Below are positions 6,772 through 48,521 of a stretch of 64,000 nt of DNA, piece by piece. The stretch's first letter is position 1. Each line of letters opens with the position of its first letter. The position numbers were made by a program, and so were the translations under genes. The notes beneath the pieces were generated by a model, which ran no database searches, was not told the DNA's origin, and worked only from the letters and a program-made list of their open reading frames with translations. Origin of the DNA: an uncultured bacterium (GTDB lineage: Bacteria > Verrucomicrobiota > Kiritimatiellia > RFP12 > UBA1067); the NCBI GenBank assembly GCA_902799955.1, contig CADCCQ010000009.1, positions 3,066 to 67,065 on the forward strand, given 5' to 3'.

Positions 6772-8015
6772 CACAAGCCCCCTGGCGCCCAATGCGCAAT
6801 TCCTCCATCGCATGGATAGTGTGCGCCGTCTCGCTCGGCGGACTTCTCTTCGGCTTCGACGCCGGGGTGATCTCCGGGTGCGAGAAGGCGATACAGGCCG
6901 AGTTCGACCTCAGGCCGTTCTGGCACGGGCTTGTCGTCGCGAGCGCGCTGATAGGCACGGTGTTCGGTGCCCTCGCGGCGGGCAGGATGTGCGACCTTCT
7001 GGGGCGCAAGCCCACGCTCGTCTGGATGGGCGTGCTGTTTCTGGTCTCCGCCGCCGGCTGCGCCTTCACGCCGCACGGCGGCGTGGTCGGACCGCACGTC
7101 CTGGGTTGGATGCGCTTTATCGGCGGAATCGCGACCGGCGGCGTGTCGATCGCAGTCCCGATGTACATCGCGGAGATCGCGCCGCCGGAAAGGCGGGGGC
7201 GGCTGGTCCTCGTCTACCAGTTCTGCATCGTCCTAGGAATCGTCGTCTCCTACGTCTCGAACTACTGCGTCGCGAGGTGGCTGCCGTTCCCGCCACGCGT
7301 CGTGTGGCGCGTGATGCTCGGCGCCGAGTGCCTCCCGATACTGATGTACCTCGCCGCCCTGACCAGCGTGCCGGAAAGCCCGCACCAGGCGAAGGTCCAG
7401 GCCTCCGCCCCGCTCTTCGTGCGGCGCAACATGCGTCCGATCCTCCTCTGCTTCACCGTAGCGTTCTTCAGCCAGCTCTCCGGCGTGAACGCCGTGAACT
7501 TCTACTCTCCAAGGATATTCGAAATGATATTCGGCGAGGGGAGCAAGCTCGTCTCGCTCGCCGGGACGATCGGCGTCGGGATCGTGAACCTCGTGTTCAC
7601 CGTCCTCGCGTTCTTCCTGATCGACTGGTTCGGAAGGCGCAGGCTGCTGATATCGGGATGCGTCGCCATGGCGGCGATGCACGGGCTCGTCGCATGGCAG
7701 ATTTCGCTCGGGCCCAATTGCACGCCCTGGCTCGCGCTCGCGGGCGTCTACGGGTTCATTGCGTCGGTCGCGTTCTCCGCGAGCGCGGTCATCTGGGTGT
7801 TCATCAGCGAGATATTCCCGCCGGACGTGCGGGCCAAGGGGCAGAGCTTCGGCGGCGCCGTGCACTGGATCATGTGTATGCTCGTCTCCTGGCTCTTCCC
7901 GGTCGCCGTCGAGCACACCGGGACGTACGCCTTCGCGTTCTTCGCGGCGATGATGCTGATCGAGGCCGTCTGGGCCATATTCGTGATGCCCGAGACTAAG
8001 GGCAAGAGCATCTAA
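6768..8015 (+). CDS. MFS sugar-porter family transporter
   Basis: Start taken at the ATG at 6768 inside track ORF 6342..8015 (4-nt overlap with the MoxR stop). Motifs LGGLLFGFDAGVISG, GRKP, PMYIAEIAPPERRG and PESP are present, along with multiple hydrophobic helices. Confidence 0.75.
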
Positions 8016-29652: not shown

Positions 29653-29679
29653 TGGAGATCTACATAAAGGAGCACCATA

Positions 29680-33945: not shown

Positions 33946-33957
33946 GCGTGGCGGGCA

Positions 33958-36900
33958 ATGGGTAGTGTCGACACAGACATTCTGGGCGGCTTCAGGCTGC
34001 TGAAAGAGCTTGGCTCGGGTGGCGAAGCCAAGGTCTACAAGGCTGTATGTGTGCGCAATATGCATAAGATTGTGCCCAAGGGCAAGGTTGTCGCGCTCAA
34101 GATTGTATACGAGCACGGTGCGGATGCTGATGGCCATTGGCAGAAGTTGCAGACACGCGTCAAGGAGTTGATGCGTCTCGACAATCCGTATGTTGTCCGC
34201 TATCTGGGATGTTTTCGCGAACGCGGACAAGATGGCGAAAAACATGTGGTGGTACAGGAGTTCCTTGAGGGTCGGACACTTAAAGAGCAGCTTGCGCTAT
34301 CCCGGCTGGGACTTGACGTTGATGAAGGCAGGCGTGTGGTGAATCAGGTGCTTGAAGGACTCGACTATACCACCGGCCAAGGCATATATCATCGTGACAT
34401 AAAACCGGCGAATGTCTTTCTTTGCGCGGACGGCGGAGTCAAACTGATAGATTTCGGGGTCGCCAAGCAGGTGGCAGCCAATGTGACCGTGACCGTGTCG
34501 GACAATATTCGCGGAACATGGAACTACATGGCACCAGAGTTCACGTCCCCGTCCTTTAGCGGAGATGTGAGAAGCGATGTCTTTTCCGTGGGCGTGTTGT
34601 TGCACGAGATACTTGTCGGGACCTTGCCTTATGCCGACTTGAACAGCCTCGGCATGTCTGGCTATTATTCCCGCTGGTCGCAGCAGGCCGCCCCGGATGT
34701 CCCTGCAATCAGAGTCGATCCGATGGCGGAACGTCTCTTGATTGGCGTGGAGAACATCCTGTCCGTGGCTCTGGCACGGAATCCTGCCGCTCGATATGCT
34801 TCGTTTAGGGATTTTCGCAGGGCGTTTGACAGGGTGGAGCCAGTCTGCACAAAGGGTGGGGGGCATACGTATCAACGTTTGAAATTCGTCGGCAGGGGTG
34901 GATTTGGCGAGGTGTTCAAGGCACGATGCCAGGAGACAGGCGAGTTGGTGGCCATCAAGAAGCTTCTCAAACCGGAATATGCCAGCCGGTTCCGGCGCGA
35001 GGCCAAGATTATGCGTCGGCTAGACGATCCTTGCTTTGTCAAGTTCATTGATTTCTTCGAATTGCGCGACGGCGCGTTCCTCGTCATGCGCTTTCTTGAG
35101 GGCATGCCAGGCGGCTCGCTGCACGACGCAATCATACGGGCTGGCGAGAAATGCAGAAATGACGACAACAAAGACTGCGGTCTGCCCAAAGCGCTTGTCC
35201 TTGCCGCCTTCGAGCGCTATGCACGCGGACTTGCCGTGTTGCACGGACGGGGGATTGTCCATCGCGACATAAAGCCAAGCAATCTCTACTACCCGGAAGG
35301 ACATCCAGATTGCGTTGCAATCATGGACTTTGGCATAGTTCGAGCCAAGGACACCACGTTTACATACGGGAACGTGCCATGTACGCCAGACTACGCGCCG
35401 CCGGAAATCGTGATTTCCGGTGATCGCGGAGAGCCGGCGATGGACATCTTTTCGCTGGGGCTTTGCATGTACGAGGCGCTGACAGGTGGGCGAAAGTCGT
35501 ATCCAACGCTTGCTTCCGGCACGGCTGGATACAACGCATTATGTCAGCGCGCCAAGACGATGCAGGAACCGAATTTCGACGATTGCCGGGTTCGGGCCGA
35601 CAGTGAGCTTCTCGAATTGCTTCAGCGGATGACGGCTCCCGACAAATCCGTGCGCATGAATGACGCCAACGAGGTCGCCCGGGAGCTCCGCAGGCTCTTC
35701 TACCGTCCAAGTACGGCCCCGGATTGCCCGACGACGGCTGTGTTCGGTTCGTCCCCTGATATTTCCACGCCCATTGATGCCGCGAAATTGCTGGATTGGT
35801 TCAAGGCATGGAGGGAGAAGCACCCCGTTGAAAAGCCCACGCCGTTACCTGAGCCGTGGCCACATCCTGGTCCGCGAAAGACTGCATGGAAGAGTGTGAT
35901 AGTGGTAGCGCTAGTCGTTGCTTCCCTGGGCGTGGCTACATGGCGGGTCGCGAGATTACGATACGGGAAAGACGATTTTGTGCATCCTGAAACTAGGCAG
36001 GATACTGGCAGTTTGACCGAAACAAATCCAGTACAGAAGGTCGTGGCAGAGGTGCCTACGGTTAAACCTGTCCCCGATGACTACATCAAATTGAAGCATC
36101 AGGCGTTTAAAAACGATTTCGACATCCGCATGAGGGACGAGCCTGTGACAAACCGTCGGGACCGTATTGCAAGTGCGGAAAGGCTGCTTCGAAAGGCGAT
36201 TGTCGAGGATCATCTCTGCACCGAAGGGGAGGCTGCGCGTTTTCGTGCGGAAATCGAAGCCGCCAGGAAGAGGGTCGTGGGCGTCTTGAAGAACGGCAGC
36301 GGTCTGGAGCTCGTTGTGGACGGCAGAAAACTTCCCGCAGGTGTTGAACATACGTTCTCCTTCGACGACGGAGAGCCAATAAAACGTACAATGCGGCTGT
36401 TTGGCCACGACGAACGTCCGCTGCCTTCCAACCTTGACGAGAAGGTCATGGTTGTCACGACAAACGATTTCAATGTGTCTACGGTCAAAGTGGAGTTGCC
36501 GGAATCGCTTGAAGGGGGCGTTACGTGTTTCTTCAACGGGAAGCAAGTAGGCGGGGCCGGCTTGTCGCTTACGCCAGGATCGTATGAATGCGTTTACCGG
36601 AGAGAAGGTTATGAAGAGCAAAGGATTGCCTTTGACGTTTTGTTGGGAACGGGCAGATCCATTCCCGAACCAGATCATTGGAAGGCAAAACCCGTAGATG
36701 TCGAATTGCCCGCTTTTGGCAAGGATGTTGTTTGTTCGGTTGATGGCAAACCGTCATCGGAGGTGAAAAGGCTTATGCCAGGTGAACACGCGGTAGAGTA
36801 TAGGCGAAAGGGGTATTTTAATCAGACGATTCCATTCGTGGCAAGATTGTCCGAGCCTGTTTCCGTGCCGTTGCCAGACAGGGAATGGCGCGTGAGGCCC

Positions 36901-37638
36901 GTGCCTGTGGCGGTGCCGGAGCTGGAGCGTGGCGTCTGGTGTGCTATAGACGGGACGAACGTCGCATCCAAGTCTTCCGTTGAATTGATGCCGGGCAAAC
37001 ACGCGCTTGAGTACGAGAGGTACGGATATGTGCGGCAGGGAACCAACTTTGTCGTCAAGGTTGGCGAGGAGAAGGTGGAAGTGCGCGGGCCTTGTCCATG
37101 GGAGATTGCAAAGGTAAGGGTTTCCGTGCCGAAACTGGAACGGGGTGTCGAATGTAGGATCGACGGCAAGAGCGTGGCAGAGGAAATTGACCTCGTCCCG
37201 GGCGGGTATTCATACGAGTATGTTCGGACAGGATTTAAGACGCAGGCCGATCGATTCGTAGTGATGGCAAATCACCCGATGAATCTGCCAGAACCGGGAG
37301 AATGGGTCATGGTGCCCAGTCCAAAAGCAGTGCCGTCAAGTCCCGATGTCCTGTCGCCGTCGTACAAGGAGGCACTGGAACGGTATGCATTTCAGGATTA
37401 TGGTGGTGCACTTGAGAAGTTCCACGCGGCGCTCAAGGAGGACTGCCGCCCTCGTGCGGATGACATGGATAAAATCGAGGATGCTTTCAAGAAGCGCCTT
37501 GAAGAGATAAATGGCCTGATAAATCGGACCAAGGCCGACATTTCGATTGGTCGGGACCCCAAACGCAGCCTGGATGACTTGGACAATGATCGAAAGACCC
37601 TCATCAAGTGGTATAATGAGCTAAAGGCAGCTCGGTAA
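33958..37638 (+). CDS. Membrane-spanning tandem Ser/Thr protein kinase (two Hanks-type kinase domains, one TM helix, PEGA-like repeats)
   Basis: Kinase 1: LGSGGEAKV, VALK, HRDIKPAN, DFGVAK, YMAPE. Kinase 2: GRGGFGEV, VAIKK, HRDIKPSN, DFGIVR, YAPPE. The TM helix is AWKSVIVVALVVASLGVATW. Four ~70-aa repeats and a helical tail follow. Confidence 0.8.
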   Translation: MGSVDTDILGGFRLLKELGSGGEAKVYKAVCVRNMHKIVPKGKVVALKIVYEHGADADGHWQKLQTRVKELMRLDNPYVVRYLGCFRERGQDGEKHVVVQEFLEGRTLKEQLALSRLGLDVDEGRRVVNQVLEGLDYTTGQGIYHRDIKPANVFLCADGGVKLIDFGVAKQVAANVTVTVSDNIRGTWNYMAPEFTSPSFSGDVRSDVFSVGVLLHEILVGTLPYADLNSLGMSGYYSRWSQQAAPDVPAIRVDPMAERLLIGVENILSVALARNPAARYASFRDFRRAFDRVEPVCTKGGGHTYQRLKFVGRGGFGEVFKARCQETGELVAIKKLLKPEYASRFRREAKIMRRLDDPCFVKFIDFFELRDGAFLVMRFLEGMPGGSLHDAIIRAGEKCRNDDNKDCGLPKALVLAAFERYARGLAVLHGRGIVHRDIKPSNLYYPEGHPDCVAIMDFGIVRAKDTTFTYGNVPCTPDYAPPEIVISGDRGEPAMDIFSLGLCMYEALTGGRKSYPTLASGTAGYNALCQRAKTMQEPNFDDCRVRADSELLELLQRMTAPDKSVRMNDANEVARELRRLFYRPSTAPDCPTTAVFGSSPDISTPIDAAKLLDWFKAWREKHPVEKPTPLPEPWPHPGPRKTAWKSVIVVALVVASLGVATWRVARLRYGKDDFVHPETRQDTGSLTETNPVQKVVAEVPTVKPVPDDYIKLKHQAFKNDFDIRMRDEPVTNRRDRIASAERLLRKAIVEDHLCTEGEAARFRAEIEAARKRVVGVLKNGSGLELVVDGRKLPAGVEHTFSFDDGEPIKRTMRLFGHDERPLPSNLDEKVMVVTTNDFNVSTVKVELPESLEGGVTCFFNGKQVGGAGLSLTPGSYECVYRREGYEEQRIAFDVLLGTGRSIPEPDHWKAKPVDVELPAFGKDVVCSVDGKPSSEVKRLMPGEHAVEYRRKGYFNQTIPFVARLSEPVSVPLPDREWRVRPVPVAVPELERGVWCAIDGTNVASKSSVELMPGKHALEYERYGYVRQGTNFVVKVGEEKVEVRGPCPWEIAKVRVSVPKLERGVECRIDGKSVAEEIDLVPGGYSYEYVRTGFKTQADRFVVMANHPMNLPEPGEWVMVPSPKAVPSSPDVLSPSYKEALERYAFQDYGGALEKFHAALKEDCRPRADDMDKIEDAFKKRLEEINGLINRTKADISIGRDPKRSLDDLDNDRKTLIKWYNELKAAR
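36484..37323 (+). repeat. Four tandem ~70-codon PEGA-like repeats inside the kinase gene
   Basis: Repeat starts are at 36484 (VKVELPES), 36694 (VDVELPAF), 36901 (VPVAVPEL) and 37114 (VRVSVPKL). Each contains a conserved C..(D/N)GK...L.PG.(Y/H)..(V/E)Y.R.G(Y/F) core. Confidence 0.7.
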
Positions 37639-37652
37639 GGAGATGTGCTGTC

Positions 37653-38828
37653 ATGGGCGAGAATCTTGAAGCTGCAAAATACGATGTATTCATCAGTTAC
37701 TCTAGACGGGATATGGGAAGTGTGCAGCCTGTTGTCGACCGGCTGAGGGCAGAGGGGTATAGTTGCTGGATGGACGTGAACGGCATTGAAAGTGGTGATG
37801 AATTCCGTTCAAAACTGGTTGATGCCATAGAGCGCTCCTGCATTGTGGTGTTCTTCTCGTCTGCTGATTCCAATGTGTCAAAATGGACCAGGCGGGAGCT
37901 TTCGGTTGCCGATGAATGTCACAAGCCGATAATTCCCGTCAGGCTTGACCACGCACCATATTCCAATGCCATCAAGCTTATTCTGACGGGCGTGGACTAC
38001 ATTGATTTCCAGGCGGTGGAATTGCGCATGGCGGCAACTGAGAGGTTGCTCAGAAGTGTCAAGGAGAAGACGGAAGATGTCTTGTCGGGACATACGGGGA
38101 TGAAGGGTTTGACCTTGCCCGGTGGTGTGTCAATGCGTTTTAGGTGGTGTCCGCCCGGGACGTTTATGATGGGGAGTCCGCAGACAGAGGAGGGGCATGC
38201 CCAAGATGAGATTCTACATCGCGTCACGCTTACAAAAGGCTTCTGGATGGGGGAGACCCCTGTGACGCAGAGGCAGTGGGAAGCCGTCATGGGTGACAAC
38301 CCTTCTGTTTGCCGGGGCGCGGATCATCCCGTTGAAGGGGTCTCGTGGCATGACTGCATGGATTTCATCAGAAAGGTGAACGAGCAGCAGAAATGCGCAC
38401 TGCGTCTGCCGACGGAGGCGGAATGGGAATATGCCTGTCGTGCCGAGACGAACGGACCATTTGGCGGGAATGGGGTCTTGTGCGAGATGGGGTGGTATAA
38501 TGACGACAGCTACGGCGAAATGCAACCATCGCGGTCGTCCCATCCTGTCAAGAAGAAAGAGCCTAACAAATGGGGCCTCTACGATATGCATGGGAATGTC
38601 TGGGAATGGTGCAGCGACTGGTACGGGGCGTATTCTGCGGAATCGGTCACAGACCCCATTGGGCCGCCCGAAGGGAAGCTGAAGATACGTCGCGGCGGTT
38701 CGTGGCAAGACGAGGCGATGGCATGTCGCTCCGCCTACCGTTTAGTGTTTTCGCCCGAGTCGCGGCACAGCCTCCTGGGTTTCCGTGTCGCATTCGATGC
38801 TGACGCATACGAGGAGAAGGAGAAATGA
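37653..38828 (+). CDS. TIR domain fused to an FGE-sulfatase (SUMF1/PvdO-type) domain
   Basis: TIR motifs: YDVFISYSRRD ... SKWTRRELSVA (conserved Glu). FGE-type motifs: FMMGSP, HRVTLTKGFWMGETPVTQRQWEAVMG, PVEGVSWHDCMDFI, RLPTEAEWEYACR, HGNVWEWCSDWY, RRGGSW...CRSAYR...GFRVAF. There is no signal peptide or TM helix. Confidence 0.8.
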   Translation: MGENLEAAKYDVFISYSRRDMGSVQPVVDRLRAEGYSCWMDVNGIESGDEFRSKLVDAIERSCIVVFFSSADSNVSKWTRRELSVADECHKPIIPVRLDHAPYSNAIKLILTGVDYIDFQAVELRMAATERLLRSVKEKTEDVLSGHTGMKGLTLPGGVSMRFRWCPPGTFMMGSPQTEEGHAQDEILHRVTLTKGFWMGETPVTQRQWEAVMGDNPSVCRGADHPVEGVSWHDCMDFIRKVNEQQKCALRLPTEAEWEYACRAETNGPFGGNGVLCEMGWYNDDSYGEMQPSRSSHPVKKKEPNKWGLYDMHGNVWEWCSDWYGAYSAESVTDPIGPPEGKLKIRRGGSWQDEAMACRSAYRLVFSPESRHSLLGFRVAFDADAYEEKEK

Positions 38829-39136
38829 TGAAATGCAATGAGACAGACAAAGAGTGTTGTCGTCCGCAATCGACGGATACGGGCGATGTCGCATTGCCTG
38901 AATCGCTCATGCCGCTCATCGAGGCGTTGGCGGAGAACGTCCATGACACATGGGCGAAGGGACGAATGGACGAGGGCTGGACATACGGCCCCGTCCGCGA
39001 CGACGCAAGGAAACAGCATCCTTGCCTTGTCCCCTACGCCGACCTTCCCGAATCCGAGAAGGCATACGACCGTGCCACGGCAATTTCAACACTGAAGTTC
39101 ATCTGCAAGATGGGATACGAACTTTGTCTTAGATGA
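38825..39136 (+). CDS. Stand-alone RyR (ryanodine-receptor repeat) domain protein, 103 aa
   Basis: LIEALAENVHDTWAKGRMDEGWTYGPVRDDARKQHPCLVPYADLPESEKAYDRATA matches the RyR-domain consensus almost position by position. The ATGA overlap with the TIR-FGE stop suggests translational coupling. Confidence 0.75.
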   Translation: MMKCNETDKECCRPQSTDTGDVALPESLMPLIEALAENVHDTWAKGRMDEGWTYGPVRDDARKQHPCLVPYADLPESEKAYDRATAISTLKFICKMGYELCLR

Positions 39137-39171
39137 GTAATATGAATTCAAAGGAGAACAGATAACTCGCC

Positions 39172-39510
39172 ATGAAAATGATTACACTTAATGTTACGCG
39201 TGATAAATCACTTGTCGGAGCGGGAATGTCCTATCGCATTTTCATCAATGACAAGGAGGTTGCCAAACTAAGAATCGGCAAGACTTTCTCCTGCCAGTTG
39301 CCAGGCGAACAGTTTACATTGCGCGCTTCAATGGTTGGGAACGCATTGTCATTTCATAAAATCGGGAAGGAGGTCGCAGTATTCCCAGAATACAGTAAGT
39401 CGGGCGTGATTAACTGTAAATTGAGAACACGACAAAATTGGCTGGGTTTTCTTACGCTTGGGATGTTTCAGGCGATTGGCAGAACGGAAATTGAGGTGTT
39501 GTATCAATGA
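39172..39510 (+). CDS. Hypothetical protein (112 aa)
   Basis: Good RBS (aaaggaga) and a beta-rich sequence (YRIFINDKEVAKLRIGKTFSCQLPGEQFTL). No motif was recognised with confidence. Confidence 0.45.
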   Translation: MKMITLNVTRDKSLVGAGMSYRIFINDKEVAKLRIGKTFSCQLPGEQFTLRASMVGNALSFHKIGKEVAVFPEYSKSGVINCKLRTRQNWLGFLTLGMFQAIGRTEIEVLYQ

Positions 39511-39520
39511 GGATTGAACG

Positions 39521-41086
39521 ATGAAGTATTTGGTGATGTTTCTGTCCTGGGCGTTTGGCGTACTGACGGTTCTTTTCCTTGTGTTCATGTCAATGACGCT
39601 TCTGGACGTAGGATCGGCAGACATACCGATAGTATTGGAGAATACAGATGAATACGCCCGTGTCAAATGGGAATTGGAGGGACGTGATTTTGGGCAACCA
39701 ATCATGCTGGTCGTTAGTTATTTTCTGTTCGCCGTTACACATTCGCTTCATCATAGGCTACGAAAAAAGAAATGCGACACGCTCAACGTCGATGCCATAG
39801 AAGGGCCCTTCGTGCTTTATCTGCGCTCCTTTATCGCGGACAGGATAACATCCAGACGGATTTCTCTGTTTGCAGACATCCGTTCGGAGGAAGAGACTCT
39901 AGTTGATGTTCTTTCTGAAATTGCCCCGGTCTATGCAATCGGGGACCCCAAGGACAAGAAAATGCCCGTGGGAGCTTCGCGGATATATGTGGACGACGGG
40001 CACTGGAAGACCACTGTGGAGAAGTTGTCCCAAAAAGCCGTCGTTGTTGTTTTACGACTTGGGGAAACCGACAGTTTCTGGTGGGAAGTGGAAATGGCCG
40101 CACAGAAAGTCCCTCTTGAGAAACTGTTGTTTGTCGTGCCAGAATGCAAGACGTTCAGTAATGTCGCAACGCTATATAAGGTACTACTCGATAATAAAAT
40201 TGACATAAAATCGGCAGGAATCAGCATTGACAGGAAATCGAGGGGGTCAATTTCCAGTTTCATGTTCTTTGGTCGTGACGGAACTCCTGTCGCCAAATCG
40301 GTTAAAATTCCCAGATTTACGCAAATCGTTGTTTCATATGAAAACATACTGAGAAATGCGCTGGCCGAGTTCCGTGCCAAGTACGGATTGCATGCCAGAT
40401 GGGGTGCTGCCATAAGATGGGCGCAATTGCTCCAGATAGTTGTGGTTGGCAGTATGTTTCTTACATTTGTGTCCTTGGGCGTTAGAGATTTCACCAGATT
40501 GAACTGCCAAATGCCGTATGAACTGCTGGAGAAATGCGTTGAGTATCCAGAGTTTACGTCTAAATATTCCAATGATATAAATGGTTCATGCCTAATTTGT
40601 GCGATTGATGAATCTGTAAAAGGTTATTTATGGCTTGCCGACGAGAAGTATAAATTTATGTTATGCACTGAAGCAAAAGCTATTCGGGCAATGAGTCAAG
40701 GCGAACTTAGACAATTGTCAAAGGCACAAAAGAACTCTTTGCTAATGATTAAGAAATACGTTCCTGAATGCTATGATGAGTATGTCGGCATCCTAGCGGA
40801 GGCGGCGATTCTGTCAATTCAACGCCCTAAAGAGACAGAGGATCTAATAAAAGCATATAAGCGCAAGATTGATATGCTTCCGCAATGGATGATAGATTTT
40901 GAGATGAGTCTGCATGATGAATGTGACAACATGCTGATGCGGCTTTCCGACGAAGTTGTCAAACACATTGACGAAAGCAATATTGTCGAAACATTAAAGA
41001 TACTTCATAGTCAAACCATAAATGTTGGTAATACCTCAACTCAAGGGGAAAGTCAACCGTTGGATGAGGATTCGGCGGATATGTGA
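39521..41086 (+). CDS. Hypothetical three-TM membrane protein, possible divergent TIR-like/flavodoxin-fold cytoplasmic domain
   Basis: Two N-terminal TM helices, a basic stretch (HHRLRKKK) and a third TM helix around AIRWAQLLQIVVVGSMFLTFV. The intervening domain shows the strand-helix pattern FVLYLRSF ... PVYAIGDP ... AVVVVLRLGETDSFWWEVEMA. Confidence 0.45.
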   Translation: MKYLVMFLSWAFGVLTVLFLVFMSMTLLDVGSADIPIVLENTDEYARVKWELEGRDFGQPIMLVVSYFLFAVTHSLHHRLRKKKCDTLNVDAIEGPFVLYLRSFIADRITSRRISLFADIRSEEETLVDVLSEIAPVYAIGDPKDKKMPVGASRIYVDDGHWKTTVEKLSQKAVVVVLRLGETDSFWWEVEMAAQKVPLEKLLFVVPECKTFSNVATLYKVLLDNKIDIKSAGISIDRKSRGSISSFMFFGRDGTPVAKSVKIPRFTQIVVSYENILRNALAEFRAKYGLHARWGAAIRWAQLLQIVVVGSMFLTFVSLGVRDFTRLNCQMPYELLEKCVEYPEFTSKYSNDINGSCLICAIDESVKGYLWLADEKYKFMLCTEAKAIRAMSQGELRQLSKAQKNSLLMIKKYVPECYDEYVGILAEAAILSIQRPKETEDLIKAYKRKIDMLPQWMIDFEMSLHDECDNMLMRLSDEVVKHIDESNIVETLKILHSQTINVGNTSTQGESQPLDEDSADM

Positions 41087-41096
41087 CAATCTTGAA

Positions 41097-41234
41097 ATGA
41101 AAAGGGAACCAGGGATGGAGAGATCAATCATCAAGACTCATGTATTCGTCAGCTACGCTCGTAGTGATGTGACGGAAGTGGCTAACCTGCTTCAGCGGAG
41201 ACTTTGGGCGATATTTCCACGGGGAAGGGGTTGA
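41097..41234 (+). pseudogene. 45-codon fragment resembling the N-terminus of a TIR-domain gene
   Basis: Hand translation gives MKREPGMERSIIKTHVFVSYARSDVTEVANLLQRRLWAIFPRGRG*. A TIR betaA-type motif (VFVSYARSD) is present, but the ORF stops after 45 codons. Confidence 0.4.
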
Positions 41235-41238
41235 ATAA

Positions 41239-41376
41239 ATGACACCTAAACGAATCATCCTTGTGCGGCATGTGCGGTCGGCGGCGAATGACGATCCGAC
41301 CGTGTACAGCCGAGTGCCCGACTACAAGATTGAGTCTGTGGATGAGGGGCGCGAACAGTCTGGAGATCTTGCATGA
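41239..41376 (+). pseudogene. 45-codon fragment resembling the N-terminus of a histidine-phosphatase-superfamily gene (copy 1)
   Basis: Hand translation gives MTPKRIILVRHVRSAANDDPTVYSRVPDYKIESVDEGREQSGDLA*. The family RHG motif is degraded to RHV. A paralogous copy lies at 42989..43126. Confidence 0.4.
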
Positions 41377-41510
41377 ATGTTGTCGACAGAATGGCGCGGT
41401 TGGCGATGATCGCGCATAACGGCGTTAACCGAAAGGGACCAGGCAATAAGCCGTATATTGTTCATCCTCATGCCGTTGTGGTGATGTTGAAGGATATGCC
41501 GGTGCGATAA
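41373..41510 (+). pseudogene. 45-codon fragment resembling the N-terminus of an HD-domain (RelA/SpoT-type (p)ppGpp hydrolase-like) gene
   Basis: Hand translation gives MNVVDRMARLAMIAHNGVNRKGPGNKPYIVHPHAVVVMLKDMPVR*. Compare the canonical AHxGQxRKxxGxPYIxHPLxVAxIL. The ORF stops before the HD dyad. Its ATGA overlaps the preceding fragment. Confidence 0.4.
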
Positions 41511-41571
41511 TGAAGTCATGGCGATTTGTCCAAGAAAACGTTTGTAAGTTCAAACAGGAAAAGAACAACTG

Positions 41572-41718
41572 ATGGAATATGGCATCTACATCTCATATCG
41601 CCGCGAGGGGACTCTATCGGTTTTGCAATTGCCTCTTAAGTTAGTGACGCCCTATGCGGAATATATTCGGCATGAGAGGTTCTGTTGCGAGAAGCGCGGA
41701 GTGTGTTCCGCATTTTAG
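41572..41718 (+). pseudogene. 48-codon fragment resembling the N-terminus of the TIR paralogs at 43895/45712
   Basis: Hand translation gives MEYGIYISYRREGTLSVLQLPLKLVTPYAEYIRHERFCCEKRGVCSAF*. IYISYRREG matches the IFISYRREGG of the downstream TIR genes. Confidence 0.35.
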
Positions 41719-41735
41719 TTGCCGCATTTTAGTTG
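41708..41735. repeat. Perfect 14-bp tandem duplication (ccgcattttagttg x2)
   Basis: Read directly from the sequence: 41708-41721 is identical to 41722-41735. It lies about 50 nt upstream of the ATPase start. Confidence 0.9.
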
Positions 41736-41786
41736 TGTTTTGGTACGAATTATGGTATACTTGTGTGCAAAATAGAGGATTTGAAC

Positions 41787-42992
41787 ATGATAGATCGTCC
41801 TTATGGACTTAAGTGGCTTTGGCAATGGAAAGACCAGGAGCCGATAAAAGTCGTCACCGGCATACGCCGGTGCGGCAAATCAACATTGCTTTCAATGTTT
41901 CAGGGGCAATTGCGCGAAGACGGCATCAACGCCGATCAGATTGTCGCCATCAACTTTGAGCATCCGGATTTCATGGAACTTGACAATTCTGTCGCCGTAT
42001 GGAAATACTTGAAACCGAAAATTGTTCAGGGACGAAATACATACGTCTTTCTTGATGAAATTCAACGTGTAAGGGACTTTGAAAAGGTGGTTGACGGACT
42101 TTTTGTGCTGCCTGACGTTGATGTGTACATAACGGGGTCCAATGCCTATCTTCTGTCTGGGGAATTGGCTACATATCTGTCCGGTCGCTATGTCGCGCTC
42201 CATTTGACGCCGCTGTCTTTCCGCGAGTACTATGATGGCGTTGCCTCGTCCGAGTCGCCGGAACGTGCATATCGCGACTATCTTGCATTCAGTTCGTTCC
42301 CCCACAATCGCGCATGGGACAAGGAGCCGGGGCTTGTCGACGATTACATGGAGGGCATCTTAAACACGGTTCTACGAAAGGACGTCATAAACAGAAATGC
42401 ATTTCGCAATCCTGTTGCGCTTGATGCCGTGGCACGATACGTCTTCGGCAACATCGGGAATCTCACGAGCATGCGGAATATCGCGACAGTCCTGAAGTCC
42501 GAAGGTGTTTCAATTGATGCTTCTTCAGTCGAGGACTATGTCTCCGCCCTATGTGGGGCGTATCTAGCCTACAAGGCAGTCCCTAAAGATCTGCGCGGCA
42601 GGGAATTGCTCAAATCGGGCGCAAAATACTATGTCGTGGACATGGGATTGCGTCGGTTTATTCTCGGAAGCCGTGCATTCGACATGGGGCGCGTACTTGA
42701 GAATGTCATATATCTTGAACTTGCCAGGCGTCATCAAGAAGTCTATGTCGGCAGGGTGGATGGACGCGAGGTCGATTTTGTCACGCGGGACGGAGGTGAT
42801 GTCAGATACTGGCAGGTGGCGGAGACATTACGTGGTGAAGGTGTCCGCGACAGGGAGTTCGCTCCGCTAAAGGCGATTGCCGACCATTGTCCCAAGACGA
42901 TTCTATCCCTTGATCTTGACCCCGTTGGCTACGACATCGGCATCAAGACTATGAATGCGCTTGATTTTCTGCTGGAGAAGGGAGAGGAATGA
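41787..42992 (+). CDS. AAA_14/DUF4143-family ATPase
   Basis: N-terminus MIDRPYGLKWLWQWKDQEPIKVVTGIRRCGKSTLL (Walker A) and Walker B-like VFLDEIQRV. An RBS (gagga) lies 9 nt upstream of 41787. The track ORF starts earlier, at 41733. Confidence 0.7.
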   Translation: MIDRPYGLKWLWQWKDQEPIKVVTGIRRCGKSTLLSMFQGQLREDGINADQIVAINFEHPDFMELDNSVAVWKYLKPKIVQGRNTYVFLDEIQRVRDFEKVVDGLFVLPDVDVYITGSNAYLLSGELATYLSGRYVALHLTPLSFREYYDGVASSESPERAYRDYLAFSSFPHNRAWDKEPGLVDDYMEGILNTVLRKDVINRNAFRNPVALDAVARYVFGNIGNLTSMRNIATVLKSEGVSIDASSVEDYVSALCGAYLAYKAVPKDLRGRELLKSGAKYYVVDMGLRRFILGSRAFDMGRVLENVIYLELARRHQEVYVGRVDGREVDFVTRDGGDVRYWQVAETLRGEGVRDREFAPLKAIADHCPKTILSLDLDPVGYDIGIKTMNALDFLLEKGEE

Positions 42993-43126
42993 CGCTGAAG
43001 CAAACAATTCTTGTACGGTATGGTCGGTTGGTGGCGAATGACGATCCGACCATGTATAGCCGTATCCCCGACTACAAGATCGAGCCTGTCAAACAGGGTT
43101 CGTGGCCTGGAGGGTATGAGACATGA
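42989..43126 (+). pseudogene. 45-codon histidine-phosphatase-like N-terminal fragment (copy 2)
   Basis: Hand translation gives MTLKQTILVRYGRLVANDDPTMYSRIPDYKIEPVKQGSWPGGYET*. It is the same length as the copy at 41239 and has the same ATGA junction to the next ORF (MNAVG vs MNVVD). RHG is degraded to RYG. Confidence 0.4.
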
Positions 43127-43869
43127 ATGCTGTCGGTGATAATGGCCGTATGAAATATGATGTCTTCATTTCGGCGAAAAGAGAGGATTACAATCTTGCC
43201 AAGGGCGTTTTCAGGTTTTTGGTGGACAATGGATTGTCTGTTTTCTTGGCAAATGCGGAATTGAGGAAGATTGGAATGTCTCAATATGCAGAAGCTATAG
43301 ACATGGCCTTGGATGCAGCAAAGCACATGATTGTCGTTGCGTCGTGCATAGACCACATTCGCTCGTCTTATGTGCATTATGAATGGTCGGTGTTCAGTAA
43401 TGACCTGAAGAGTGGGTATAGGTCAGGTAATTTGCTAACCATTCTGACCGATGAAGTGCATTTGAGGGAGTTGCCGCCCAGTTTGAGACATCAGCAATCA
43501 TATTGCATTGATACATATCAGCAAGAGATACTAGGATATTTGGGCAAGGGTGAAGATGAAGTCTTTCCGGTAAAACAAAGGCTGACAAGAAATGGAAACA
43601 AACAGGCGAGGCGTGCTATTAATTTAATGTTGATAGTGGGGGTGTTAATTGGTTTTTGTAGTGGAATTATAGTGGAGATTTGGCGATCGAGATTTCCATC
43701 TTCTCAGGTCACAAGTGTGCCTACTGATTTATTGAAAGCGAAAGAAGGGGAAACCAGGCGTATGGAAGCGATTTATGAAAGGGCGCAGAAGCAAAATGTG
43801 GAAAACAAACTTGACAAGGCATTGCAACCACTAGTGCCCGTTGTTGATCGACATGAAATGACAGAGTGA
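43123..43869 (+). CDS. TIR-domain protein with one C-terminal-proximal TM helix
   Basis: TIR motifs: KYDVFISAKREDYNLAKGVFRFL ... MIVVAS ... SSYVHYEWSVFSN (conserved Glu). The TM helix is AINLMLIVGVLIGFCSGIIVEIW, preceded by basic residues. Confidence 0.7.
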   Translation: MNAVGDNGRMKYDVFISAKREDYNLAKGVFRFLVDNGLSVFLANAELRKIGMSQYAEAIDMALDAAKHMIVVASCIDHIRSSYVHYEWSVFSNDLKSGYRSGNLLTILTDEVHLRELPPSLRHQQSYCIDTYQQEILGYLGKGEDEVFPVKQRLTRNGNKQARRAINLMLIVGVLIGFCSGIIVEIWRSRFPSSQVTSVPTDLLKAKEGETRRMEAIYERAQKQNVENKLDKALQPLVPVVDRHEMTE

Positions 43870-43894
43870 AAAATGCCAATGTGGAAAGGGAAAT

Positions 43895-44281
43895 ATGAAT
43901 AAGTCACAGCAATACGACATCTTCATTTCATACCGTCGCGAGGGCGGGTATGACACGGCGCAACTGCTGTATGACAGGCTGACGCAGATGCGCTATCGCG
44001 TATCGTTCGACCTGGAGACATTGCGAGGCGGAAAGTTCAACACGCAACTTTACAAGCGCATTGAGCAATGCTCGGACGTGCTTGTCGTCATGAGCAGGGA
44101 TTCTCTGAACCTTCGCGAGAACCCGGAGGACGACTGGTTCCGACTTGAGATTGCCCATGCGCTGAAGCACAAGAAGAACATCGTCCCAGTGTTCCTAAGG
44201 GACTTCAAGTTCCCGCAGAAAGGGGAGCTGCCCGAAGACATAGCCGACCTGGTGAACTATAGCATTTCGACAGTGTACTGA
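43895..44281 (+). CDS. TIR-domain ORF (128 aa); 5' part of a TIR-TM-PDZ-like gene split by a 35-nt insertion
   Basis: YDIFISYRREGGYDTAQLLYDRL ... DDWFRLEIAHAL. It is nearly identical in protein sequence to residues 8-127 of the 45712 paralog and then diverges into SISTVY*. Confidence 0.7.
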   Translation: MNKSQQYDIFISYRREGGYDTAQLLYDRLTQMRYRVSFDLETLRGGKFNTQLYKRIEQCSDVLVVMSRDSLNLRENPEDDWFRLEIAHALKHKKNIVPVFLRDFKFPQKGELPEDIADLVNYSISTVY

Positions 44282-44331
44282 AGCGAATATGCAGGAACTT
44301 CAAGGCGAAGCCCCATCGGCACAAATGGCCG

Positions 44332-45678
44332 GTGGTCGCCGCCATTGCCGCTGCCCTTCTTGTCGGCGCGGGGATTGGAGTCTGGCTGAAGGCAGACAAG
44401 ATTTTCCCCTATCCTTTTACCAGAGAGGCAAGACAGGAGGTTGATGCATACTATGGAACTGTGTTGCGGATTGGGGCCGCCTATAATGAATTTCTGTCCG
44501 CAAAGATGGAACTTCTTGACAAGGTCAGTTTGAGTATAGAATCTGAAGACAAGGCGCCATATCAAGCCGCCGTACCAGAGTTCTTGCATCGACGCGGAAT
44601 GGCGAGAAAAAATCTCGACGCCGCTGCTGAGGCGTTGGAAAGAGTTGTCAAGGAGAACCCCGGATTGCGTGTGGATCGCGCATACATACCGAATTTCCTA
44701 GAGGGGGTACGACAGGAATTCGGCGATGCGGATGAGTGGGCTGCTCTTTTCAGCCTCCCGTGTGATCCTGATTACGTATGCTCAAAGGCAAACAGGATTA
44801 GGATTGTCATGCTCAATCGCAAGGAGATTGAGATATATGCCGACGTGTTTGCCTATGGCGTCATGTTCCTTTTCGACATGATTTCGCCGGAAGCGCTCGC
44901 TGACTTTAGGGAAGTCGCGGCAAAACAGTGGACGATGTTGAAGCGGTTCAGAGGCGAATGGCTGTCAGATCAAAAGCAGATTGAACAGAATGGCGAGGCT
45001 TCGCTGAACCAGCTTCAAGAAGTGGTCGAGGAGCTTGCGCAGATAATAGGAAATACGGCACAGGCCCTGGAGCAGGCTAAGCGCAACACCAAGCAAATGA
45101 GAATAGACGCGGGAATGTCGCCGGAACAAGCCGAGAGAATCGGCAAGAAGGAGGAGGAGCTTGAGAATTTGAAGGCGCAGAGGAAAGAGACGCAAAAAGC
45201 GATAGCGGATACGCGAGAGCGGATTCGCAAGAAGTTTGCGCCGAAGGATGATGACGACATTGGAATACTTTGGGGCAAAGCGTTGCGGTTCATGTCGGTT
45301 AATATGCCTGAAGACGCCAAGTTATGCATTGATGCGTTACGTCGGCGCAACACTTCGGAGTTTCCGCCCGTGGCGCTTGACACGGCGGAGGCGATATTCT
45401 TGTCTAAGGAACCGTTGCCTTTTGTGGACGGCGTCCTGGTTTGCGCATACGAACCGCCGGCGACGTCTCATGCCATATTCAAAGTCGGAGACGTCATCAC
45501 GAAAGTGAACGAGAAGCCATGTCGGCGTTATGAAGACTATCGTAACAAGGCCGGCAACACCTACACGATATACCGTAGGAACGCGAAGGGCCAGTTTGAC
45601 AAGCTGACGGCAACCATGCCTGAAGGCCAGCCGCGTGTGGCTCTGGTGGATTTGACGGAGAAGGGCTCTGGCAAGTAA
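44332..45678 (+). CDS. TM-coiled-coil-PDZ-like ORF; 3' part of the split TIR paralog (GTG start in the track)
   Basis: It is colinear with residues ~141-626 of the 45712 paralog. The TM helix is VVAAIAAALLVGAGIGVWL. The C-terminus GVLVCAYEPPATSHAIFKVGDVITKVNEKPC...YTIYRRNAKGQFDKLT is PDZ-like. Confidence 0.6.
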   Translation: MVAAIAAALLVGAGIGVWLKADKIFPYPFTREARQEVDAYYGTVLRIGAAYNEFLSAKMELLDKVSLSIESEDKAPYQAAVPEFLHRRGMARKNLDAAAEALERVVKENPGLRVDRAYIPNFLEGVRQEFGDADEWAALFSLPCDPDYVCSKANRIRIVMLNRKEIEIYADVFAYGVMFLFDMISPEALADFREVAAKQWTMLKRFRGEWLSDQKQIEQNGEASLNQLQEVVEELAQIIGNTAQALEQAKRNTKQMRIDAGMSPEQAERIGKKEEELENLKAQRKETQKAIADTRERIRKKFAPKDDDDIGILWGKALRFMSVNMPEDAKLCIDALRRRNTSEFPPVALDTAEAIFLSKEPLPFVDGVLVCAYEPPATSHAIFKVGDVITKVNEKPCRRYEDYRNKAGNTYTIYRRNAKGQFDKLTATMPEGQPRVALVDLTEKGSGK

Positions 45679-45711
45679 ACAGACGGAATAAAGACATTGG
45701 AGGGTGAACAC

Positions 45712-47592
45712 ATGGGAGAAGCACAGCAATACGACATCTTCATTTCGTACCGCCGCGAGGGCGGATATGATACGGCGCAGTTGCTGTACGACCGGCTGAC
45801 GCAGATGCGCTACCGCGTCTCGTTCGACCTGGAGACGTTGCGCGGCGGGAAGTTCAACACGCAGCTCTACCGGCGCATCGAGCAATGCTCCGACGTGCTT
45901 GTCATCATGAGCAGGGATTCTCTTAATCTTCGCGAGAACCAGGAGGACGACTGGTTCCGGCTGGAGATCGCCCATGCACTGAAGCACAAGAAGAACATCG
46001 TCCCAGTGTTCCTAAGGGACTTCAAGTTCCCGCAGAAAGGGGAGCTGCCCGAAGACATAGCCGACCTGGTGAACTATAACTTCAAGGCGAAGCCCCATCG
46101 GCGCAGGTGGCCTGTGGTCGCCGCAATCGCCGCTGCTCTTCTCATCGGTGCGGGAATCGGGGTTTGGTTGAAGTCCGACAAGATTTTCCCATATCCATTC
46201 ACGACAGAGCAGAAGAAACAGGTGGAATCGCTTGCGGCCAACATCATGCTAGTCGGCACTGCCTACAACGACTACCTGTCCGCAGAAAATGACCTGCTTG
46301 TGGCAGCTAGACTCAGTGTGGAGGCCGGAAGCCGGAAAGCGTTTGATGATGCGGCACCGACCTATCTGCATAGGCTGCGGAAAGCGCGAGACAGATTTGC
46401 TTCGGCGTTTACGGCGACTTCTGACTTCGCCAGGCATGTCAGCAACATGCCGATTGACTATGCGGGGATGCAGGTGTTTCTCGAGGGGTTGAAGCAGGAA
46501 CTCCAGCTTGCGGATGATGAGGTGCCGAGTCTGGAACGGGTATGCAACCCGGACTTCCCTTGCGAGAAAGCGGATAGGCTGCGGATGATCAACCACAAGC
46601 AAAAGGATTGGAAACTTCGGTCCGACCTGTTCTCCGTGTCGGTGATGGGAATATTCTGCAATATCGCCCCGGAGGCATTGACGGATTTCAAGAAGGTCGC
46701 GGGAGAATGGATTCACATCCGCCTTCTTCACGATCCATGGCTCCGCGATGAAAAGGAAATTGAGCGCAAAATGGAAGCGCTGTGCAATGAGTTGGCGGCT
46801 GTTGTGGGAGAGATGCAGACGATCCTCGGCAATCAGAATTCTGCACTTGCGAAAGAAACGCAGAAGTTCCGCCATGATATGGCGGAGATTGGCATGTCGT
46901 CCGATCAAGTTGAGAAGATGCTGGCAGCGGAGCGTACGCTTGCGGATATTAGGGGTCTCATTGATACGACGAAAAAACTGCCGGAACAAGAACTTGCCCT
47001 CTATAAGAAGCAATTGATCGAAGCTGGCATGACAGAGGCCCAGGCAGATTCGCTAGTGGGGAAGTTCCGAAAACTCGCCGAACAGAAGCTCGCGTTGTCG
47101 TCGGCGCAAGAACAACTGGCAGAGGCACATGACAGGCTCCGTGAGAAGTTCGCGCCGAGGGATGATGACGACATCGGGATCCTCTGGGGCAAGGCGTTGC
47201 GGTTCATGTCGGTTAATATGCCGGAGGAGGCGAAGCGGTGTTCCGATGTTCTGCGTCGGCGCAATACGCCGGATTTCCCGCCATCGGCGATTGACACGGC
47301 GGAGGCGATTATTCTGTCTAAAGGCGCGTTGCCGTTTGTGGGTGGTGTCTTGGTTTGCTCATACGAACCACCGGCTACGTCTCATGCGATATTCAAAATC
47401 GGAGACGTCATCACGGAAGTGAACGAGAAACCATGTCAGTATTTCGAGGATTACAGCAGCAAGACCGGCAACACCTACACGATATACCGTAGGAACGCAA
47501 AGGGCGAGTTTGACAAGCTGACGGCAACCATGCCCGAGAACCAGCCGCGCGTGGCTCTGGTGAATCTTACGGAGAAAGGCGACGGCAAGTAA
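45712..47592 (+). CDS. TIR-TM-coiled-coil-PDZ-like membrane protein (intact paralog)
   Basis: An RBS (ggaggg) lies 7 nt upstream of the ATG at 45712; the track start at 45697 is also possible. The order is TIR (YDIFISYRREGG, DDWFRLEIAHAL), basic patch KAKPHRRR, TM helix WPVVAAIAAALLIGAGIGVWL, a helical region of about 330 aa, then a PDZ-like end GDVITEVNEKPC. Confidence 0.75.
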   Translation: MGEAQQYDIFISYRREGGYDTAQLLYDRLTQMRYRVSFDLETLRGGKFNTQLYRRIEQCSDVLVIMSRDSLNLRENQEDDWFRLEIAHALKHKKNIVPVFLRDFKFPQKGELPEDIADLVNYNFKAKPHRRRWPVVAAIAAALLIGAGIGVWLKSDKIFPYPFTTEQKKQVESLAANIMLVGTAYNDYLSAENDLLVAARLSVEAGSRKAFDDAAPTYLHRLRKARDRFASAFTATSDFARHVSNMPIDYAGMQVFLEGLKQELQLADDEVPSLERVCNPDFPCEKADRLRMINHKQKDWKLRSDLFSVSVMGIFCNIAPEALTDFKKVAGEWIHIRLLHDPWLRDEKEIERKMEALCNELAAVVGEMQTILGNQNSALAKETQKFRHDMAEIGMSSDQVEKMLAAERTLADIRGLIDTTKKLPEQELALYKKQLIEAGMTEAQADSLVGKFRKLAEQKLALSSAQEQLAEAHDRLREKFAPRDDDDIGILWGKALRFMSVNMPEEAKRCSDVLRRRNTPDFPPSAIDTAEAIILSKGALPFVGGVLVCSYEPPATSHAIFKIGDVITEVNEKPCQYFEDYSSKTGNTYTIYRRNAKGEFDKLTATMPENQPRVALVNLTEKGDGK

Positions 47593-47627
47593 ATGGTACT
47601 TGAACACACAAAGAAAGGAACACGCAA

Positions 47628-47885
47628 ATGATGACTCAAAAGGAACTACATGATGAATTCTGGCTTCTGACGAAGAGCGTACTTCAGGACTCGCGGATAG
47701 ATGCCGCCGAGGCCACGGTGTTGAAGCGCTGGTTGGAGGAACATCAGCAAGGAGATGAGTTTGACTACTTGATCGGCAAGTTGTCTGAACTCCTCTCCGA
47801 CAAATATGTGGATCGCAATGAATCCAGGATTGTCGTTGATGCGCTCGGACGTGTCCTTGCGCAACTTCGCAGTCAACATGAATAG
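47628..47885 (+). CDS. Small helical hypothetical protein (85 aa), faint TerB-like pattern
   Basis: RBS (aaaggaa). DSRIDAAEATVLKRWL...DRNESRIVVDAL is reminiscent of TerB-type helical bundles, but this is weak. Confidence 0.35.
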   Translation: MMTQKELHDEFWLLTKSVLQDSRIDAAEATVLKRWLEEHQQGDEFDYLIGKLSELLSDKYVDRNESRIVVDALGRVLAQLRSQHE

Positions 47886-47999
47886 TCCACGTCGATTATC
47901 CATTGACAGTGGGGCGATAGGCCCTTTACTTGATTTGTTTGTCGTTGCATGGCAAACGCCCGTGAAAACGCGCAATCAACAATCAAGGAGAAGGGCGAG

Positions 48000-48521
48000 A
48001 TGAACGGCAGCGGCAATCTGAAGTCTGGTCGCATTGCGCTGCGCAGGTGGCGGGAGAGCGACGCGGACGCGCTGTTCGCGTTGGCGAGCGAACCGGTTGT
48101 GGGTGAGATGGCGAAGTTCCCTGTCCATGTCGACAGGGCCGAGAGCCTTCGCGTGATCCACGAGATATTCTGCCGGCCGGAGTTCTATGCTGTGACTTCG
48201 TCCGATGGCGATACCGTTCTAGGTTCCATCAGCCTGCATCCCGCCGTGAAGGGCTTGGACGTGTATGAGGCCGAGGAGCTCATCATTGGGTACTGGATGG
48301 GGAGGCCGTACTGGGGGAAGGGGTTCATGACGGAGGCCGTCAAAGCGCTTTGCGAGCGTTGCCGAAGCTCCGGGATGTTCTGGTGCAGGCGGATAATCGG
48401 CTACACAAACAGGGACAACGCGGGCTCGCGGCGCGTCATGGAGAAGGCGGGGTTTCGCCTTCTCGAGACGACGGACGCCGCGGTCCGGTATGCCTTTGAC
48501 GTCGTGGCAAAGGGCGTCTAG
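48000..48521 (+). CDS. GNAT-family N-acetyltransferase (RimJ/RimL-like)
   Basis: Start chosen at the ATG at 48000 behind the RBS aaggag. Motifs: [55 protein letters not shown]. Confidence 0.75.

Follow-up and report, generated by a model that had tools for sequence, protein, structure and literature searches.

Short open reading frames in a low-GC TIR island of an uncultured Kiritimatiellia bacterium are probably the remains of one operon eroded in place

Four short open reading frames (ORFs) follow one another between a gene for a 521-aa protein and an ATPase gene in a 64,000-nucleotide stretch of DNA (hereafter the window) from an uncultured ruminant-gut bacterium of the Kiritimatiellia (GCA_902799955.1, contig CADCCQ010000009.1, positions 3,066 to 67,065). 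Each looks like the beginning of a longer gene. This stack is probably a single operon eroded in place by internal deletions, a case of ordinary gene decay, if unusually tidy in its pattern. Positions 41097-41651 would then be the wreck of one translationally coupled operon, within a horizontally acquired low-GC TIR defence island, with the original order TIR (437-aa type), histidine phosphatase, HD_4 hydrolase and TIR (601-aa type). Each gene body would have been lost by its own internal deletion, probably between short repeats, while each gene would have kept its first 12-45 codons and, where visible, its last few codons and the junction with the next gene; the short ORFs would be a gene finder's view of what remained. 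We infer that the deletions occurred in place and stepwise, and that the gene starts may owe their survival to a constraint on every deletion: for the next gene, then still useful, to stay translated, the start and the stop/start overlap had to be left intact.

The stubs are called f1 to f5 in positional order, HP stands for the histidine phosphatase (His_Phos_1) and TIR437 for the 437-aa TIR_2 type; all lie on the + strand. The 5' stub of a TIR437-type gene, f1, occupies 41097-41234 (138 nt, 45 codons and a stop from the ATG at 41097). Its frame has two further ATGs, one at 41022 (giving 70 aa and running over the end of the 521-aa gene at 41086) and one at 41115 (39 aa), so that its 45 codons depend on the choice of start. 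The HP stub f2 (41239-41376, 138 nt) holds HP codons 1-41 and then a short tail; the tail closes in the ATGA with which the next gene opens, and this ATGA, at 41373-41376, is its overlap with f3. f3 (41373-41510, 138 nt) is the 5' part of an HD_4 (RelA/SpoT-hydrolase-like) gene, with homology over 41373-41494, codons 1-41, and it is followed at 41504-41571 by the last ~22 codons of an HD_4 gene in another frame, as derived from the coordinates of a local alignment to locus L121. f4 (41572-41718, 48 codons) is the start of a 601/631-aa-type TIR gene, homologous over 41572-41609, or about 12 codons; no homologue was found for the ORF beyond these. An earlier note, made from the letters of the window and a list of its ORFs, had described f1 to f4, and its coordinates, the 138-nt lengths of f1-f3 and the f2/f3 overlap were confirmed from the sequence and the ORF list. 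The motifs that it quoted (VFVSYARSD, ILVRHVRSAAND, AHNGVNRKGPGNKPYIVHP and IYISYRREG) are all present as written, and the observation of four stubs is real. A fifth 45-codon ORF, absent from that description, is f5 (42989-43126), a second HP stub, whose RHG motif reads RYG and whose junction type is that of L042 and L126. ATGA overlaps link it at one end to the stop of the ATPase gene and at the other to the start of the following 248-aa TIR gene (TIR248), and it is a diverged copy of f2 (62% amino acid identity over 42 aa; 77% nucleotide identity over 111 nt; repeat family D4).

None of the five peptides matched Pfam at E <= 0.1, nor at E <= 10, and the family assignments rest on full-length relatives, which for f1-f3 lie far beyond chance. 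Residues 13-36 of f1 are identical at 20 of 24 positions to residues 38-61 of a 437-aa ORF of the metagenome locus L128 (191-1501; pairwise E 8e-12), which scores TIR_2 at E 2.5e-11. In the homology map the TIR437 5' end corresponds to 41140-41191, which is 83% identical to L128 309-360. A word-based search for longer relatives of f1 returned seven candidates, none of which scored, and when the species genomes were scanned with the 437-aa relative, the 53 pattern matches included no confirmed one. The HP stubs resemble an intact 219-aa gene of the genus relative G021, f2 at 78% identity to its residues 1-41 and f5 at 69% to its residues 3-37, and this gene scores His_Phos_1 (PF00300) at E 4.1e-26. 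The DNA homology of f2 to full HP genes spans 41237-41361, HP codons 1-41 being 41239-41361. A complete His_Phos_1 domain has about 190 residues, with an intact RHG and a later catalytic His; f2 and f5 contain at most residues 1-41, and the RHG is changed to RHV in f2 and RYG in f5. A PDB sequence search with f2 gave a chance-level match alone (E 1.4). HP matches at E <= 0.01 occur in 29 of 117 genus genomes, in which near-full-length members of the subfamily were seen only in G021, G056 and G109, with truncated ones in G000 and at a second place in G021; 68 of the 69 HP-related loci in the species genomes match over >= 193 residues, and one matches residues 1-38 alone. The 3' part of HP was found nowhere in the 92%-complete genome of the window, nor were stub paralogues found in that genome beyond the island.

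For f3, all 40 database hits (40/40) are 74-96% identical to it; 39 of these proteins are 180-281 aa long and align over their first 40-42 residues, and 11 of the relatives carry a precomputed PF13328 (HD_4) assignment. The f3 DNA is 94% identical to L042 1256-1377. One relative, P0002, reaches E 4e-5 for HD_4 (23.8 bits, short of the 27.2 cut-off) and E 2.8e-10 for spoT_relA, and the PDB SpoT chain 7qps_A scores E 0.058. The HD dyad (H59, D60), invariant in 41 full HD_4 proteins, lies past the end of the f3 homology at codon 41, so the dyad and the rest of the domain are missing from f3. The assignment of f4 as a TIR start is weaker and rests on 34 nt at 82% identity to the TIR starts at 43911 and 45728 (repeat family D5), together with synteny with L121. 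Of a complete TIR domain (PF13676, ~120 residues), f1 and f4 retain no more than the first strand and some of the first helix. The four family guesses of the earlier note (TIR, histidine phosphatase, HD hydrolase, TIR) were right despite the lack of Pfam matches: full-length relatives of each stub exist, and the similarity stops early (f2 at codon 41, f3 at codon 41, f4 at about codon 12). None of f1-f5 can yield an active enzyme: f2 and f5 end after the first strand and loop with a mutated RHG, f3 ends before the HD dyad, and f1 and f4 reach only the first TIR strand.

Elsewhere, intact gene pairs have the order of f1-f4: TIR437-HP, HP-HD_4 and HD_4-TIR. In L128, TIR437 is followed by an HP gene that overlaps it by ATGA, this HP being cut by a nonsense codon. 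In L052 a full HP precedes HD_4. L121 has a 48-codon HP stub, an ATGA, an intact 189-aa HD_4 gene and then a 601-aa-type TIR gene that shares one base with the HD_4 stop, and L042 has a 45-codon HP stub, an ATGA and an intact 180-aa HD_4 gene. In the window the overlaps are 4 nt at f2/f3, ATPase/f5 and f5/TIR248, and the former HD_4/TIR junction has one of 1 nt, like its counterpart in intact relatives. Positions 41504-41609 align to L121 930-1036, that is, to the last ~22 HD_4 codons and the TIR start, with a local score of 44 that was reached by none of 300 shuffles (mean 16.3, maximum 24), and the HD_4 3' end passes directly into the start of f4, in the same way as in L121. Since the HD_4 remnant stands in a different frame from f3, an out-of-frame internal deletion is indicated, the f3 stop would be a by-product of it, and the length of f3 would follow from the frame shift. 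HD_4 thus has what a pseudogene made by internal deletion should have, a 5' part (41373-41494), a 3' part (41504-41571) and a disrupted frame; the retained 3' tails of HP and TIR437 amount to a few nt each and are weak evidence of the same. A second series in the window, f5-TIR248-TIR, would have its intact parent arrangement in L051, where a full HP gene is followed by an ATGA, a 245-aa TIR gene and a 647-aa TIR gene.

The earlier note had instead read the stack as a graveyard of displaced 5' ends left by serial cassette replacement at a recombination hot spot. On such a reading, incoming DNA would have exchanged the body of the first resident gene again and again, crossing over at or close to its 5' end and leaving one stub each time, and the stack would be a record of successive acquisitions. 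We regard this as unlikely. The order of the stubs is collinear with the intact pairs (L128 for the first; L052, L121 and L042 for the second; L121 for the third), and the HD_4 3' end at 41504-41571, between f3 and f4, would have gone under rightward replacement from a breakpoint; for these two reasons one eroded operon is preferred to a pile of replacements. The HP-stub/HD_4 junction also predates the locus, as it is common to L042, L121 and L119, no integrase, transposase or tRNA gene was found in the parts of the window examined (29 window ORFs scanned with Pfam; no tRNA genes in the window), and no alternative joints were seen in three DNA runs. Part of the proposal did hold, in that the HP 5' end behaves as a recombination patch. 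In intact HP genes the synonymous divergence (dS) of codons 1-37 is 0.5-1.0 vs 1.7-2.5 further on, two to four times lower. The window and the metagenome locus L119 differ by 21 substitutions across 3,066 nt; eight of these lie in f2, at 41301-41370, with six crowded into 19 nt, and the L119 tract resembles other HP copies (L120 at 89%, L124 at 87%). The HP 5' end is thus homogenised by recombination with other HP copies. Cassette replacement would further have the retention of 5' ends built in, and HP, intact or as a stub, stands after many different upstream genes (nSTAND/RHS-PDZ, TCAD9, TIR601, TIR437, ATPase and FGE).

Several results weigh against the erosion of a single operon. When, as a crude model, four deletions were placed at random in a 4.3-kb operon, all three internal starts were kept in 60 of 2,000,000 trials (~3e-5); plain neutral decay is therefore insufficient and something favours the gene starts, which fits cassette replacement, and it is our inference that coupling fills this gap. 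The f3 deletion shifted the frame and stops ~60 nt short of f4, and thus did not preserve coupling there. HP stubs precede a wider range of genes (HD_4, TIR248, TIR601, TIR-FGE, RyR, TIR-LRR) than intact HP does, as cassette exchange predicts. The differences between stubs of the same junction are mainly synonymous, which could reflect selection on the stubs. At the right end of f4 no homologue was found for 41610-41651; at the right end of f1, the similarity of the tail to the L128 junction is weak (matched by 8 of 300 shuffles). Finally, no locus with all four genes intact in the stub order was found, the collinearity being pairwise only.

The retention of starts raises the question of coupling. 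Overlaps of -4 and -1 nt are tightly coupled in translation and gaps of ~20 nt abolish coupling, according to one study (PMC10666635). HP stubs that end at the ATGA of an intact gene recur, before HD_4 in L042 and L121 and before TIR248 in f5 and L126, and must have arisen at least twice because there are two junction types; in L124 the HP stub stops 4 nt short of an intact TIR-FGE gene. A leader that passes ribosomes on should overlap the start of an intact gene behind it, and such an overlap is found for f5/TIR248, L042, L121 and L126. For f2, f3 and f4 it is not, as their downstream genes are dead. L043, where the stub frame is broken yet HD_4 is intact, and L137, L138 and L139, which have an intact HD_4 gene without any stub, speak against selection for coupling. 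RNA folding of four stub/next-gene junctions gave z values of 0.06, -0.25, -0.07 and -1.51, with no hairpin over the downstream ribosome sites. As far as sequence can tell, the HP stub is a possible coupling leader for f5, not for f2-f4 as they stand.

The earlier note's alternative was that the stubs, with their equal length, are maintained small ORFs. In the form considered here, selection would keep the 45-48-codon HP stub as a translated leader or small protein, and perhaps the other stubs too. This seems improbable to us. In its favour, besides the overlaps and the two junction types that both end at them, the ratio of nonsynonymous to synonymous differences (pN/pS) is 0.13-0.23 among the f2, L119 and L121 stubs (p 4e-4 to 0.012) and 0.47-0.48 for f5 and L126 against the L042 stub (p ~0.04), compared with 0.11-0.16 in intact HP genes. 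This synonymous excess need not mean selection on a peptide, since the f2 substitutions are clustered in one tract and stubs with the same junction are not mutual nearest relatives, and gene conversion from intact HP copies would explain it; the tree of the HP 5' 111 nt was unresolved, with 9 of 10 inner branches open. The alternative is also opposed by the degraded catalytic motif, by the position of f2 before a dead HD_4 gene, where coupling would now be without purpose, by the broken or missing stubs before intact HD_4 genes described above, by stub lengths of 19-145 aa, and by a bias of gene calls towards intact ORFs. A related reading joins it to recombination: in these TIR islands the first ~110 nt of HP would serve as a recombination linker between an upstream sensor and downstream effectors, and the 45-48-codon stub as a translated coupling leader into HD_4 or TIR. 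We hold it to be similarly doubtful; if true, the stubs would be working adaptors of a modular cassette-exchange system and not debris.

The equal length of 45 codons looks, from the sequences compared, like a coincidence, because the f3 and f4 frames vary among samples and the f2 and f5 junction types differ. f2 is an L121-type stub (HP homology to codon 46, 48 codons) minus 9 nt; f5 has the L042-type junction, with HP codons 1-38 and a tail of ~7 codons that matches the 3' end of the full L052 HP. Under a uniform 20-80-codon model, applied post hoc, three equal lengths have a probability of ~8e-4, but the frames and junctions speak against reading anything into this figure. A near-length search gave short HP forms of 38, 39, 43, 45 (six), 46, 48 (two), 54 (two), 61 and 67 aa among 16/16 candidates, the six at exactly 45 aa speaking for maintenance, and a representative search gave 45-99 aa and fusions. 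At the loci (13 of the 15 returned were examined; matches >15 residues) the short forms had 19, 30, 45, 48, 62, 103, 127 and 145 aa, and three others were of full length. For f3 and f4 maintenance at an equal length finds no support in the frames themselves: in P0001 the f3 frame extends to 85 aa, and X2, X5 and L119 carry an 8-nt insertion, AACTGATG, after 41566, by which the f4 frame of L119 becomes 85 aa. What survives of the maintained-ORF proposal is the HP stub as a possible coupling leader.

The same wreck exists in other samples. The metagenome locus L119 has the 521-aa gene, f1, f2, f3, f4 and the ATPase gene in this order, the identity being 97.4% over 809 nt. Another bovine-gut study supplies a 4,672-nt contig that covers 40500-43934 and shows 19 differences, and two further bovine-gut studies cover the stubs piecewise. 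These findings bear on the possibility that the stubs are chimeric joins made by the metagenome assembler among paralogous island genes, for which there is some ground in the genome itself (3.8 Mb in 148 contigs, 62% GC, completeness 92%, contamination 5%) and in an island rich in paralogues. With the contig of the other study, the piecewise coverage, the independent locus L119, and P0001 and P0041-P0046 coming from other sources, we consider an artefact extremely improbable. One RNA run, available as contigs only, had pieces on the ATPase and TIR248 genes and none fitting the stubs; contigs cannot show translation.

Other defective copies were met in related islands. HP is shortened by internal deletion in L122 (127 aa) and P0064 (92 aa). 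Defective HD_4 genes were seen in L141 (1501-1671, cut by a nonsense codon after 56 aa) and L142 (1501-1854, an in-frame internal deletion, 117 aa). In L009 (G021:C30), an ATPase gene at 7097-7667 is broken by an internal deletion of ~286 nt and runs into a 51-nt HP remnant, and from 10231 onward an intact HP shares an ATGA with a TIR-like start (MKYDIFAS) behind it, whose ORF is <35 codons long; gene stubs are therefore present in the G021 island too. Internal deletions are common in these islands, which favours erosion of the stack by such events. In the metagenome record that includes L124 and L126, the TIR-FGE and ATPase genes stand about 3 kb further apart than in the window. HD_4 starts also turned up outside HD_4 genes: the TIR437 protein of L128 opens with 17 HD_4 codons fused in frame (191-241; 90% nucleotide identity to window 41373-41423), and the first 9 codons of TIR248 (43123-43149, MNAVGDNGR) also resemble the beginning of HD_4; TIR genes may therefore carry fused HD_4 stubs. 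Intact HP genes have a recurrent place as well. In L011 (G032), HP comes after a protein that scores TCAD9 with a receiver domain, with an ATGA overlap; in L013 (G056), L053, L125 and L127 an intact HP with an ATGA overlap follows upstream ORFs that are like that of L011 by eye; and in all five loci large membrane proteins lie 3' of HP. The phosphatase seems to be a regular second gene of TCAD9-type conflict systems.

The stack resembles the pseudogene erosion of Rickettsia and other lineages, in which unneeded genes are cut to short remnants that are homologous to intact relatives and mis-called as small ORFs. It differs from that process in that four adjacent genes each keep the 5' end and the junction with the next gene, which is very unlikely under crude random deletion, and in that the remnants lie in a recently acquired defence island and not in a decaying genome. 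The orphan fragments of Rhs/CDI systems are 3' ends without starts, kept with immunity genes and re-activatable by recombination. The fragment arrays beside intact paralogues, the conflict locus and the recombination between conserved segments are common to those orphan toxin-immunity cassettes and the window, whereas the fragments here are 5' ends with starts, in former operon order and without partner genes. In an orphan-cassette array of a polymorphic-toxin locus, displaced fragments would share a conserved recombination segment with an intact main gene and bring their own immunity genes; the stack is not such an array, as it is made up of four families in operon order with no partner genes between them. 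As in the translationally coupled pairs of PMC10666635, there are 4-nt and 1-nt overlaps; the upstream partner in the window is a gutted relic and not a subunit gene. With the TIR/STAND conflict islands (nSTAND1, TCAD9; PADLOC PDC-S01) the window shares its ATPase, which PADLOC scores as this candidate defence system, and the relatives place HP beside nSTAND1, RHS-PDZ or TCAD9 and TIR effectors. No described system naming a trio of His_Phos_1, HD_4 and TIR was found in the libraries searched, and PADLOC gave no match for the HP or HD_4 genes. For annotation, a series of small ORFs in an island of this kind can turn out to be what is left, in tidy form, of a whole operon, which the intact pairs of relatives allow one to reconstruct. 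A recurring trio of histidine phosphatase, HD_4 hydrolase and TIR beside STAND/TCAD9-type genes is documented in uncultured ruminant-gut bacteria, with a phosphatase that was inactivated repeatedly. Should selection prove to be what retains the starts and stop/start overlaps, the stubs would clearly exemplify gene relics whose only use is to hand ribosomes to the next gene.

The stack lies within a low-GC block at ~28,000-48,000 (GC 43-59% vs 62-70% around it), all genes of which are on the + strand. The block holds, in order, a ShlB/TPS secretion pair, a double protein kinase, a TIR-FGE gene, a RyR-domain gene, a 112-aa ORF, the 521-aa gene, f1-f4, the AAA_14/DUF4143 ATPase gene, f5, TIR248, a split TIR gene, a 631-aa TIR gene and a GNAT gene. 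The whole genome has just four canonical TIR starts, all inside this block, and the kinase of the block scores PD-T4-6/mad6-like in PADLOC. Rfam gave no match at E <= 1 on 40500-43500, and a promoter scan found 7 promoter-like sites vs 3.3 expected, none of them telling, and one terminator-like hairpin. The related loci belong to metagenome-assembled genomes of Kiritimatiellae/Kiritimatiellia or Verrucomicrobia from ruminant guts. The 521-aa gene on the left flank (39521-41086, + strand, from the ORF list) accompanies the stubs in L119; it had no Pfam, NCBIfam or PADLOC match, and none of the 116 other genus genomes yielded an orthologue, which had been sought to locate the equivalent locus.

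A conserved region upstream of the ATPase gene (41652-41786, + strand) is 90% identical to L126 164-312 and 78-89% to G021, and it contains the terminator-like hairpin at 41696-41711. A perfect 14-nt tandem repeat at 41708-41735 (two copies of CCGCATTTTAGTTG) overlaps this hairpin just 5' of the gene, and in X2, X5 and L119 both copies carry the identical T>C change (41716 and 41730). The ATPase gene is intact (41787-42992, + strand; Pfam AAA_14 E 2e-32, DUF4143 E 2.6e-14; PADLOC PDC-S01 E 7.7e-135); its start was set at the ATG at 41787, the longest ORF opening with a TTG at 41733. TIR248, directly after f5, is likewise intact (43123-43869, + strand; TIR_2 E 9.2e-8), and its orthologue in L051 comes after an intact HP gene. 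The small RyR-domain gene (38825-39136; E 6.2e-33) overlaps the end of the TIR-FGE gene, and RyR is also found 3' of HP stubs in L129 and L130.

Downstream of TIR248, a TIR gene at 43895-45678 (+ strand), 91% identical to the intact 601-aa gene of G021, is split by a 22-nt deletion into ORFs of 128 aa and 448 aa, and its paralogue at 45697-47592 (+ strand) is an intact 631-aa TIR gene (TIR_2 E 2.1e-14; repeat families D1-D3). These tandem paralogues are 91% identical across their first 300 nt. Relative to the intact G021 gene, the first lacks 22 nt, which shifts the frame, and the second lacks 57 nt in frame; both deletions begin after the same base (~44260 and ~46077) and both lie between CAGG repeats.

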